Shown: piece by piece, positions 23,188 to 42,928 of the stretch
How the letters are laid out: every line of letters begins with the position of its first letter
Position numbering within the stretch: position 1 is the first letter of the stretch
Source: a virus
Lineage: Duplodnaviria > Caudoviricetes
DNA: 64,000 nt
Reading direction: 5' to 3' (one strand)
IMG/VR virus record: IMGVR_UViG_2558860250_000001
Coordinates: 1-64,000 of that record
The notes under the pieces: model-generated
Told to the model about the DNA's origin: nothing
Databases searched by the model: none
Seen by the model: the letters and a program-made list of their open reading frames with translations, nothing else
Program-made: the position numbers and the translations under genes

Positions 23188-24759
23188 TTATTTATTACCT
23201 CCAGTTAATTTTGCGAATTCTTCATCAATACGTTGCTTTCTCAGGGCAGGACTCAAGTTGGGGTATTTAGCGGATACCGTCTTAACAGCCTCGGCATACA
23301 AATTGCTCTCGTCAGTCTTGTCCGGAGTATCAGCGTTAGCAAATTTCTCGACCGCAGTAGTCGTGATACCCTTTGGCGGTTGCGCAGTATTCTCGACCAC
23401 TTCGAGCCGTTCATTAAACTGACTCAACTTTTCGCCAAGTTCATTTGCGGATTTTTGTAATCCCGCAATCATGCCTTTTATATTATCTGTATCAATAACG
23501 GTCGACTTCGTAACGGTATTAAATTTCTCGTCCATAATTGCCAATACGGACTTAGTAACCTCTTCAATAATTGCATTTTTAAGTCCAAGTGGATCATTAT
23601 TGGCTTCTTCAACAGCGTTTGGTGCATTGGTTCCTGTTGAATCGACTGGCTTTCCGGGTTCCTCGACAATTTCATTTGCAGCCTGTGCTTCCGGTCGAAC
23701 TAAATTGTCGTTATCTCCATCGCGATCTTTATCAACTTGATTAGCCATTGCTTCGACAACACCGCGAATCTCACTAAGTTGCGTTTGCATGCCTTCCATG
23801 ACATTGCGTAATTCGTCAACCGCTGCCTTAGTGGAATCAGCCGATGTTACCTGTGGGGTATTTTCATCTGCCACAGTTGTTTTTTCCTCCTTTTTATCAT
23901 CACCATCCAAGTTATAAGGTTGTAAGCCACTTGAAGTGTCCAGAGTTTTATTGGCATTCTCTTTCCATGCTTCAGGTATCTTTAAACCTTTACGACGGGC
24001 AATCTCAATAATGCGACGTTTTACTGCATCGGGATCTTTTGCATGACCGATTAGTCTAGCAGCATTGTCTACGTCTTCTTGATCTTTAATGGGGAACGAA
24101 CGATGTGGCCCAGCGAAATCTTCTTCCGACATCGAGTTTCGTTCCTTTTGACTATAATAACGTTTTGCGAATTGCGCAGTATCATCGTCATCAATTCCGA
24201 AACCATCAACCATTGCATTAATCCAATCGATATCGTCATCGTTTAGCATAGCAACAATTACGTCATTCTGATCTACCGTTTTCCACTCCTTTAATTCTGC
24301 ATCGAACGTGGCAACAACGGGAGATTTGATGACTTGGAAATCCGCTTGATACGACGCGGGGATATCGACAATTGATGTCTCAATCACTTCACCGTCTATC
24401 AATCGTCCACGATCAGCCTGTGGATCATGAACTATCACAGGATTTTTGATACCAATGCTAAAGCCATTTAACTCTCCATCCTCTATTTGTCGCCACGCAT
24501 CAGGATCGGAAATTTTAGCTGTAATATAAAATCCTTTTTGGACTGGATCCCAATCTGAACACGTTAGAACTTTCCCTACAACTCGCGGTTGATGAAGATA
24601 CCTGATGTTTCCGTATTTTTCTGCCCACTGTTTGTAGTTGTTCTTCAGGAAGTTTTCATCAATAATTTGTTTGTCTCTGTCTAGATTTGAGGATGCCGCT
24701 ATACCCTCAACTATATGTTGTTTTGAGTCCTTTTTTGTGAAATCAGCTACGAGTGCCAC
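23188..24759 (-). CDS. Prohead protease (HK97-type) + DUF6582-like domain + scaffold
   Basis: V.G.A....DRD, YLHQ, GFSIG, E.S.VD.PA; FAGP.RSFPI.D..DV.NA; acidic coiled-coil C-terminus. Confidence 0.85.
   Translation of the reverse strand: MALVADFTKKDSKQHIVEGIAASSNLDRDKQIIDENFLKNNYKQWAEKYGNIRYLHQPRVVGKVLTCSDWDPVQKGFYITAKISDPDAWRQIEDGELNGFSIGIKNPVIVHDPQADRGRLIDGEVIETSIVDIPASYQADFQVIKSPVVATFDAELKEWKTVDQNDVIVAMLNDDDIDWINAMVDGFGIDDDDTAQFAKRYYSQKERNSMSEEDFAGPHRSFPIKDQEDVDNAARLIGHAKDPDAVKRRIIEIARRKGLKIPEAWKENANKTLDTSSGLQPYNLDGDDKKEEKTTVADENTPQVTSADSTKAAVDELRNVMEGMQTQLSEIRGVVEAMANQVDKDRDGDNDNLVRPEAQAANEIVEEPGKPVDSTGTNAPNAVEEANNDPLGLKNAIIEEVTKSVLAIMDEKFNTVTKSTVIDTDNIKGMIAGLQKSANELGEKLSQFNERLEVVENTAQPPKGITTTAVEKFANADTPDKTDESNLYAEAVKTVSAKYPNLSPALRKQRIDEEFAKLTGGNK
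23906..23940. repeat. 35-bp exact direct repeat, copy in protease/scaffold gene
   Basis: Identical to 23034-23068. Confidence 0.97.
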
Positions 24760-41100: not shown

Positions 41101-41325
41101 TCAATGACCTCCAGTTAGGGCATTTAATATTTCGGTCAACATCTCGTGGTGAGTCTGAGCCAATTTAATCAACTCGTGAATAGCCGCCGTACTTTGACCT
41201 TTTAGATTCGCCGCTTCAGCCTTAATTTGAGCCATTTCAGCTGCGTGTTCATTATTGATACGTGCGAGTGCCTTTGCTTTACGTGTCTCCATCGCACCTT
41301 TAACGATGATGCCCATAAGTCCCAT
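41101..41325 (-). CDS. Small coiled-coil protein
   Basis: GGAGG RBS before MGLMG. Confidence 0.55.
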   Translation of the reverse strand: MGLMGIIVKGAMETRKAKALARINNEHAAEMAQIKAEAANLKGQSTAAIHELIKLAQTHHEMLTEILNALTGGH

Positions 41326-41326
41326 T

Positions 41327-41443
41327 TTATTGACCTCCAATCGCAGTTAAAAACATATCGATTACGTCTTGTATATTGAGTTGTGTCGGCAAGTCCGATG
41401 GATTGACTTTGGCTAACCATTGCATTGCTTTAATCCACAGCAC
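41327..41443 (-). CDS. 38-aa peptide MLWIKAMQWLAKVNPSDLPTQLNIQDVIDMFLTAIGGQ (not in ORF track)
   Basis: GTG behind AAAGAGGTG; stop abuts next start. Confidence 0.5.
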   Translation of the reverse strand: MLWIKAMQWLAKVNPSDLPTQLNIQDVIDMFLTAIGGQ

Positions 41444-41627
41444 GCAACTTCACCTCTTTAGAGTATTGAACCAATGGGCATACATGTTGCGGTTGCTTAC
41501 GACGTTGCAATACGGCATATCCAACGCCCCAAATTGCGATAGGATAGGTGGCTGACAATATTGCGCATACACTTGCAGCACCAACAAATGTTGTAAAAAC
41601 AATTACACCTTTAATTTTAGGCGACAT
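41430..41627 (-). CDS. Small membrane protein (MSPKIKG...)
   Basis: GAAAGAGGTG RBS; hydrophobic core. Confidence 0.55.
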   Translation of the reverse strand: MSPKIKGVIVFTTFVGAASVCAILSATYPIAIWGVGYAVLQRRKQPQHVCPLVQYSKEVKLRAVD

Positions 41628-41628
41628 C

Positions 41629-41658
41629 GAATATTCACCTCTTTCTGCGGACACACTA
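41629..41658 (+). promoter_or_regulatory. SigF/SigG-like forespore promoter
   Basis: GAATA-N15-GGACACACTA (also GAATA-N18-CACACTA). Confidence 0.55.
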
Positions 41659-41691
41659 CCCTCAACAAATAAACCAATTGGAGTGATCAAT

Positions 41692-41775
41692 ATGTTCGCG
41701 GAACCTTTGTACCTTTTCATCGGCGGCGCAATTGGAGCTGTGCTAAACGTGTTGGCCGGAGTGTGGCATTTTTAA
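41692..41775 (+). CDS. 27-aa hydrophobic peptide MFAEPLYLFIGGAIGAVLNVLAGVWHF
   Basis: GGAGTGA RBS; downstream of SigF/G-like promoter. Confidence 0.55.
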   Translation: MFAEPLYLFIGGAIGAVLNVLAGVWHF

Positions 41776-41867
41776 TGGGATATATCATTGGAACCATTAC
41801 GCTATTGGGTATAACAATTTGGACTGCACACGATTGGGTGCATTTGGCACATGTACTGCACCCGTAA
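41775..41867 (+). CDS. 30-aa peptide MGYIIGTITLLGITIWTAHDWVHLAHVLHP
   Basis: TAATG coupling; stop abuts the convergent gene's stop at 41868. Confidence 0.5.
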   Translation: MGYIIGTITLLGITIWTAHDWVHLAHVLHP

Positions 41868-42170
41868 TTAAATTAATCCATCCAGTATATCGTCGTCTGA
41901 TATGGGGACATTATCCATGACGGATGATTTGATAGTGGGTGCAGGCGGTGTGGTTGCTTGCGCCCCATTTTGCATCATCAACCGAACACGTCTCACACAC
42001 TCGCGTATACGACCAGCACGATTGGGCGCGGAATATATCCATTCTAAATCTGCGCGTTGTTCAGAATCGAGCACATTCCATCCGGTTGACATAGTGACAA
42101 TTTCACACTTATCGCTGCGTCTGTAACTTTTTACTGAGTAACCGGCCAACTGTATAGTATGACTTTGCAT
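41868..42170 (-). CDS. ParR-like adaptor / DNA-binding protein
   Basis: Directly after ParM; L.W....N....IR..VR; acidic tail; GAAGGAG RBS. Confidence 0.55.
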   Translation of the reverse strand: MQSHTIQLAGYSVKSYRRSDKCEIVTMSTGWNVLDSEQRADLEWIYSAPNRAGRIRECVRRVRLMMQNGAQATTPPAPTIKSSVMDNVPISDDDILDGLI

Positions 42171-42928
42171 TCGCGTACACTCCTTCTTCGATGGACACAA
42201 CATCTTTCAATCCATATTCGCGTAACGCAACTGCTAGTATTTCGGCGGTACCGCCCATCGTGTACACTGGTCCATTGAATCCCCACATGTGTTTCATCAA
42301 ATCGAACGCAATCAATCGCGCTAAATCGTGAAACTCCATTTCCTTATTTAACACTCCGTATGGCAACGTACCCGACCGCAAATCCATCCATTTTCCATTT
42401 TCCCACGTTACATAATTTGTTGTCGCGCCACCCAAGTCGATCCCATGTACTATGCCCGATTTAGACGGAAGTAGATACACACAACTCGCACACTCCGGCA
42501 CCACATCCACTCGTTCAATTGTGATTTGTTTGACACGACCATCAACTTCAATAGCGTGTTGCCCCCAACATCAACCGTTTCATCCGTTCCTTTTCATCCG
42601 GTACATGGTTGGTAATAGGGTGACCGATGACTAAGTGTACCGGTTCCTCATGCGCAGCCAATCGCGATATCGCAACTAATCCCAATATGCGTGTATCGTC
42701 GATAGCCTTCGTCGCCATAAAGTTGCGGCGTCCGTCCCGTGACTCGTTCGCTATGTTTCCGACGTAATACCGTTTGCCGATATGTTCAACCTCCATATCA
42801 TCTGGCGTGCGCTGATATTCTAGTTTGAGTGGGCGATATGTCCCTATGATGGCTGGAAACATCGCACATTTATCGTCGGTGTACGCTTTGACACTGTGAC
42901 GCCCGACATCCAATCCGATTACCTTCAA
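42109..42928 (-). pseudogene. parM: ParM/StbA actin-like partition protein, split by +1 frameshift in G5 tract (42562-42566)
   Basis: GLDVGR..VK, G.PI, V.VVPE, GIDLGGATTN, GG.A, YANA; removing one G joins the two ORFs via LGQHAIEVDGRVKQITIERV. Confidence 0.85.

Follow-up and report, generated by a model that had tools for sequence, protein, structure and literature searches.

The 64,000-nt stretch of DNA that we analyzed (Duplodnaviria; Caudoviricetes; IMG/VR record IMGVR_UViG_2558860250_000001, positions 1 to 64,000; hereafter the window) is part of a prophage in a 4.35-Mb genome of a spore-forming Bacillota host. Around the locus of interest the genes run on the minus strand and comprise a divergent XRE regulator, a ParM-like gene, a ParR/RHH-like ORF, a 240-nt gap (41628-41867), genes for a 65-aa membrane protein and a 79-aa protein, a TrbC/VirB2-like protein and a 68-aa protein, an M23 peptidase with transmembrane segments, and an 812-aa ATPase that is about 32% identical to SPP1 gene 32. 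The features in and around the gap are as follows:

41629-41633 (+), predicted -35 element GAATA
41649-41658 (+), predicted -10 element GGACACACTA, 15 nt after the -35
41680-41686 (+), Shine-Dalgarno (SD) sequence GGAGTGA, 8 nt before the ATG at 41692
41692-41775 (+), ORF A, a micro-gene of 27 aa (MFAEPLYLFIGGAIGAVLNVLAGVWHF), a single hydrophobic helix with a GGxxG core
41775-41867 (+), ORF B, a candidate micro-gene of 30 aa (MGYIIGTITLLGITIWTAHDWVHLAHVLHP) with a hydrophobic N-terminal half and a His-rich tail, its start overlapping the stop of ORF A as TAATG
41937-41965 (+), a terminator-like hairpin with a weak T-tract downstream of ORF B, antisense inside the ParR-like gene
41868-42203 (-), the convergent RHH/ParR-like (gp31-like) gene, whose likely true start is near 42092
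41430-41627 (-), the divergent 65-aa membrane-protein gene, with SD AAAGAGGTGA (complement of 41635-41644) and ATG at 41627

ORF B ends one base before the stop codon (41868-41870) of the convergent RHH/ParR-like ORF, and the -35 element lies between the SD and the ATG of the minus-strand 65-aa gene, so that the promoter overlaps the ribosome-binding site of that gene. The initial annotation had described a forespore-type promoter driving two hidden membrane micropeptides against the operon direction, and each sequence element that it reported was found at the position given, which confirms the observation.

We next asked whether these elements could be chance ORFs and a chance promoter match in an ordinary intergenic spacer. 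Taken alone, the promoter match is not above chance. The SigG-type pattern GHATR-N18-CAHWHTA has 1 match in the window against 2.17 expected, matches to the SigF consensus with at most one mismatch occur 12 times in the window, which is the background rate, and exact SigF-consensus matches number 11 in the whole host genome, as predicted from composition. One of the exact matches (GTATA-N14-GGGGACATTA) lies within the window on the plus strand, 18 nt after ORF B, and is followed by the hairpin noted above, the two together spanning 41885-41965; it is not conserved in relatives and is probably due to chance. The significance of the match upstream of ORF A comes instead from its conservation in relatives.

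Related loci in phages and prophages

No close DNA relatives were found: a megablast search of the region against phages and a DNA search of 45 genomes of the host family both returned nothing. Likewise, searches for related loci with the ParR-like protein, the 65-aa protein or the ATPase as single queries returned nothing, and only alignment-based queries were productive. Using the ATPase in this way, we reached a same-order MAG (G058, 56% identity), metagenome and IMG/VR loci (27-55% identity), the annotated phages SPP1, GBK2, 0105phi7-2 and Ray17, and more distant paralogous clusters at 26-29% identity, including a second one in the host genome. The closest ATPase homologues on Logan and ENA contigs (P0002, P0003 and P0005, 51-56% identity) were left out of the comparison of loci. 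In total, we identified 22 non-redundant relatives of the surrounding module (RHH/ParR-like gene, small membrane proteins and SPP1-gp32-like ATPase at 26-56% identity). The RHH gene of the window itself gives a pairwise E=0.001 to its counterpart in one of these loci (L036), which in turn matches SPP1 gp31 at E=1e-6.

In locus after locus, the gap between the RHH (gp31-like) gene and the next small membrane-protein gene contains a hydrophobic ORF of 17-30 aa that lies on the strand opposite to the operon, follows a strong SD located 7-9 nt from the start codon, and is preceded by a SigF-type promoter motif. Its 3' end overlaps or abuts the convergent RHH gene in all loci. Examples of the encoded peptides are MIFLVGGLVGGAIGLLVNVLVG and MHFLIGLIIGGAIGALTHLF (loci L026 and L041), MSFFIGLIVGGVVGWFASGI (locus L043), MPALLLEILGEWPYLFVGGFFGLLANMAHH (G058, locus L018), MFIAALIVGYGIGLAVNSLVG in GBK2 and MHVAIAVAVGAIIGTLVNIFVG in 0105phi7-2. 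SPP1 carries a 17-codon ORF (MHFFISLLIGYIVGVLV; L053:3062-3115, minus strand, equivalent to about 24460-24513 on the light strand of NC_004166.2) in the gene 31-31.1 gap, where it follows SD AAAGGAGGG and a perfect SigF-type -10 (GGGCATACTA) and overlaps the end of gene 31 on the opposite strand. SPP1, Ray17, GBK2 and 0105phi7-2 all carry the cassette without annotation. ORF A aligns with the family over its FIGGAIGAVLNV core, for example with the L026 peptide, and the family consensus is M-x-F-x-I-G-L-I-x-G-G-x-I-G.

Two other clades carry different peptides at the same place. One consists of 27-29-aa peptides (MP.F.W...LVQIGKAL...) in loci L025, L027, L029, L031 and L045, about 700-800 nt upstream of the ATPase on the opposite strand and behind the same type of promoter, except that the motif of L045 fits poorly. 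The other consists of 25-28-aa peptides (MP..AA.WEIIVG..C) in locus L021 and in the second cluster of the host genome (L022:3408-3546, plus strand, about 3363300-3363450 of host contig G000:C1), whose ATPase is 26% identical and whose own opposite-strand micro-ORF (MPLFAAYWEIIVGAVCSIVGHAMMVAGQ) lies behind GGATA-N14-GGACATCCTG. A pattern scan of IMG/VR for GGACATACTA followed by an SD and an ATG, which returned mostly unrelated matches, added at least three further 0105phi7-2-type copies. No cassette was recognized in phages Carmen17 and PBC1 or in loci L044 and L019.

Coding potential of the two ORFs

Given the conserved position of the micro-ORF, we sought to determine if selection acts on the peptide. 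Among 16 non-redundant sequences of the first family, pairwise differences by codon position are 0.53, 0.34 and 0.67, and 501 of the differing codon pairs are synonymous and 1399 are non-synonymous. The conserved glycines use GGA, GGC, GGG and GGT. This is the signature of selection on a peptide rather than on an RNA or a DNA site, and ORF A is therefore a real, conserved micro-gene. Conservation of the ORF, its SD and the promoter motif across 22 loci whose flanks are unconserved rules out the chance explanation for ORF A and its promoter, although that explanation remains a possibility for ORF B alone.

These data also bear on the possibility that the functional product is the antisense transcript, or that promoter occupancy alone acts through transcriptional interference, with the ORF being incidental. 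In its favor, the promoter overlaps the ribosome-binding site or 5' end of the next operon gene and is directed head-on into the RHH/ParR gene in every locus. However, conservation of the start codon and of a strong SD at fixed spacing, together with the codon-position pattern and the synonymous variation at the glycine codons, makes this unlikely as the sole explanation, while interference may well act in addition to the peptide.

Scans of the peptides against Pfam, NCBIfam and PHROG gave only sub-threshold hits: SpoVM (PF08183) at 12.2 bits (E=0.2), below its gathering threshold of 20.6 bits, YtxH at E=0.3, and PHROG 11252 at E=0.016 for ORF B. No family in these libraries covers the peptides. 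We also considered a type I toxin-antitoxin-like element, in which the peptide would be a membrane toxin and its mRNA would be held in check by the overlapping convergent operon transcript acting as antisense RNA. The peptide is short, hydrophobic and prophage-borne, and sense and antisense transcripts must overlap given the arrangement of the 3' ends. On the other hand, Fst/TxpA/BsrG-type toxins usually have a charged C-terminal tail, whereas the members of this family show no consistent charged tail and are as short as 17 aa, the cassette is kept in the strictly lytic phage SPP1, the promoter is of the sporulation type, and a sigma-70 scan of the window, the only search made that bears on a dedicated antitoxin RNA promoter, gave no hit in this stretch. 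We regard this reading as quite unlikely.

The evidence for ORF B is weaker. It overlaps ORF A as TAATG, it fills the 92 nt up to the RHH stop exactly (in relatives the micro-ORF also abuts or overlaps the end of the RHH gene), its N-terminus (MGYIIG...LLG) and one Gly align with the N-terminus of the family, especially with that of locus L039, and the PHROG hit, although borderline, also speaks for it. However, no relative has a tandem second ORF, no significant homologue was found, an ESM Atlas search gave no hit of 0.9 or more, and ORF B has no good SD of its own. Its DNA also holds two imperfect direct repeats of about 30 nt, which could serve another purpose; a parC-like centromere or RHH operator is not excluded for the ORF B region, but does not explain the ORF A cassette. 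ORF B is unique to the window and remains uncertain, and we consider it only somewhat more likely than not to be real. The initial claim of two hidden peptides is half confirmed.

The predicted promoter

The published B. subtilis SigF consensus (Wang et al. 2006, as quoted in bioRxiv 10.1101/2023.12.01.569620) is GYATA at -35 and GGnnAnAHTR at -10, with a 14-15-nt spacer. The spacing and the G residues upstream of the -10 are confirmed by other reports as the SigF hallmark; a PsigG analysis is given in PMC5942855 and C. difficile equivalents in PMC3789822. The -10 element of the window, GGACACACTA, matches this consensus at 10 of 10 positions and its spacer is 15 nt. The predicted transcription start is about 7 nt after the -10 (41665-41667). 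The -35 element GAATA matches at 4 of 5 positions and is a variant known from several SigF promoters; relatives carry GTATA, GCATA and GAATA. With at most one mismatch, 13 of 16 non-redundant loci have a match ending 19-39 nt upstream of the ATG of the micro-ORF, against a background, measured over 348,774 positions of the same loci, of 9.2e-5 per nt (0.0046 per 50 nt). Apart from these, matches are scattered. When 22 loci were anchored on the -10, information content was high only at G, A, T and A of the -35 and at G1, G2, A5, T6, A7, T9 and A10 of the -10, and near zero in the spacer and flanks. The resulting consensus, G.ATA-N15-GG..ATA.TA with a spacer of 14 or 15 nt in all relatives, reproduces the SigF consensus.

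The initial annotation had proposed that the element fits both SigF-like and SigG-like spacing. The SigG consensus is GHATR-N17/18-CATXHTA, and the window reads GAATA-N18-CACACTA, which fits the looser CAHWHTA form but has C instead of T at position 3 of the -10, whereas many relatives have CATACTA or CATAATA. The host has sigG, spoIIR, gpr and SASP genes, and its own forespore genes carry the same signals: sigG has GCATA-N14-GGACATACTG, spoIIR has GTTTA-N15-GGCTAGAATG, and a SASP gene has GTATA-N18-CACAATA. The other bacterial hosts that were checked (G058 and two further genomes, G005 and G014) also carry spoIIR, and the ATPase module occurs almost only in phages of Bacillus, Geobacillus, Lysinibacillus and Brevibacillus.

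Since the promoter class is inferred from sequence alone, we considered whether the promoter is read by another holoenzyme, such as a SigB-type general-stress sigma, a phage-modified polymerase or weak SigA recognition, in which case the peptide would be made during stress or lytic infection and not specifically in the forespore. Some copies (L025, L029, GBK2 and locus L035) carry a GTTTA -35 and a GGGTAT or GGGCAT -10 start, which resemble the SigB consensus, and a few copies (GTTTA-N14-GGGTAT...) would also fit a SigB-like consensus. The SPP1, Ray17 and 0105phi7-2 copies have perfect -10 elements (GGGCATACTA in the SPP1 group, GGACATACTA in 0105phi7-2) but poor -35 elements, and those of the SPP1 group can be read loosely as TTGTTA-N17-TACTAA. 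In addition, just beyond window position 1 (G000:C1:3125096-3125347, locus L008), a 171-aa ORF gives a partial match to the SigG model (E=1.7e-11, region 16-95) and may be a prophage-encoded sigma-like protein. However, the most conserved positions (A7, T9 and A10 and the GG of the -10, and A3/T4 of the -35) are those of SigF/G and not of SigB or SigA, 3 of 5 complete relative phage genomes encode no sigma70_r2 domain, so that a phage sigma is not required, and the sigma-70 scan found no SigA-type promoter upstream of ORF A. We consider this alternative unlikely. Readings by the mother-cell factors SigE and SigK were rejected because the invariant T9/A10 and the GG do not fit CATACAHT or CATANNNTA.

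Interpretation and relation to known systems

The explanation that we favor, with fair confidence, is that the stretch is a compact expression cassette, predicted to be forespore-specific and set backwards inside a phage operon, which consists of a SigF-type promoter (probably also read by SigG), a strong ribosome-binding site and a 27-codon gene for a single-helix membrane micro-protein, to which a second 30-codon ORF is probably translationally coupled. The cassette belongs to an uncatalogued family that sits at one fixed position, between the RHH (gp31/ParR-like) gene and the first small membrane-protein gene of the gp31.1/31.2/gp32 (VirB4/FtsK-like ATPase) module, in phages and prophages of spore-forming Bacillota. 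What our comparisons establish is the conservation of ORF, SD and bipartite promoter motif, protein-level selection on the ORF, and agreement of the motif with the SigF consensus and the host sigG promoter. Forespore expression, although well supported in silico, is an inference, as is all that follows from it: the cassette would be silent in vegetative cells and would fire only when the phage genome lies in the forespore after asymmetric division, and the peptide would then insert into the forespore membrane and modify or block the neighboring membrane/ATPase machine, a link that rests only on conserved gene position. RNA polymerase leaving this promoter would also run head-on into the operon and occupy the ribosome-binding region of the next gene, damping the module in that compartment. 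A forespore-specific switch or inhibitor of the adjacent module seems most likely as the function.

The interpretation offered initially is therefore supported in part. The forespore-type promoter, the first micro-gene, the overlap with the ribosome-binding site and the head-on orientation hold, whereas the proposed function, an 'already in the spore' exclusion signal or transcriptional interference, is plausible but rests on no direct evidence. A bolder and more doubtful possibility is that the cassette is a compartment sensor for phages of spore-formers, in which the micro-protein, made only if the phage genome has reached the forespore, switches off or gives direction to the VirB4/FtsK-like machine (and ParMR where present). 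It would thereby govern entrapment of phage DNA in spores (virospores) and keep the phage quiet until germination, in a system conserved from SPP1 to Alicyclobacillus prophages.

Compared with the SigF/SigG-dependent promoters of B. subtilis, the architecture inferred from sequence is the same (-35 G(Y/A)ATA, a 14-15-nt spacer and -10 GGnnAnAHTR), but the predicted promoters described here lie in phage and prophage genomes, antisense inside an operon, and some have a degenerate -35. Phage elements wired into the host sporulation program include phage-encoded sporulation-like sigma factors (PMC9429907) and Spo0A boxes and par-like elements linked to virospore entrapment (PMC12991052). The sspC gene inside prophage SPbeta is transcribed by SigG. 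In the present case the phage brings not a regulator but a target promoter plus a micro-protein, conserved at one position of a specific membrane/ATPase module, and we found no description of such a cassette in the literature searched.

The RHH gene, small membrane proteins and ATPase of the window are the counterpart of the SPP1 gp31-gp31.1-gp31.2-gp32 module, for which a membrane translocon of unknown role formed by gp31.1, gp31.2 and gp32 has been proposed (Godinho et al. 2018, PMC6316719). That re-annotation considered only heavy-strand ORFs longer than 45 codons and listed the 31-31.1 gap, where the SPP1 copy lies, among five unexplained non-coding segments; the light-strand 17-codon ORF and its promoter are not described there. 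SPP1 transcription in vegetative infection has been reported from the heavy strand only, which fits a light-strand cassette that is silent outside sporulation. With bacterial small membrane proteins that modulate larger membrane complexes (for example SpoVM, KdpF, AcrZ and MgrB; reviewed for Gram-positives in PMC10730256), the peptides share size, a single hydrophobic helix, a small-residue (GGxxG) motif and a gene next to candidate partner membrane proteins, but there is no significant sequence match. SpoVM is a mother-cell protein.

How phages enter the forespore, stay silent and resume after germination is an open question, and what is known so far concerns mostly Spo0A boxes, par-like sites and phage sigma factors. 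Entrapment of phage genomes in forespores (virospores) is an active topic. A conserved phage gene with a SigF-type promoter would be a direct molecular handle on that stage, attached to a widespread module (gp31-gp32) whose role is still unknown, and its presence in SPP1, which infects B. subtilis, makes it directly testable by routine assays. The case also shows that 17-30-codon genes on the 'wrong' strand are missed by phage annotation, even in a 50-year-old model phage.

Flanking genes

At 41101-41627 (-), the two small genes for the 65-aa membrane protein and the 79-aa protein lie between the cassette and the TrbC-like gene, whereas the closest relative, G058, lacks them and its cassette is directly divergent from the TrbC-like gene. 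At 42109-42928 (-), the ParM-like gene is split into two ORFs in different frames, of which 42548-42928 matches residues 1-124 and 42109-42510 matches residues 142-262 of the intact 269-aa ParM of G058, indicating either a frameshifted pseudogene or a sequencing error.
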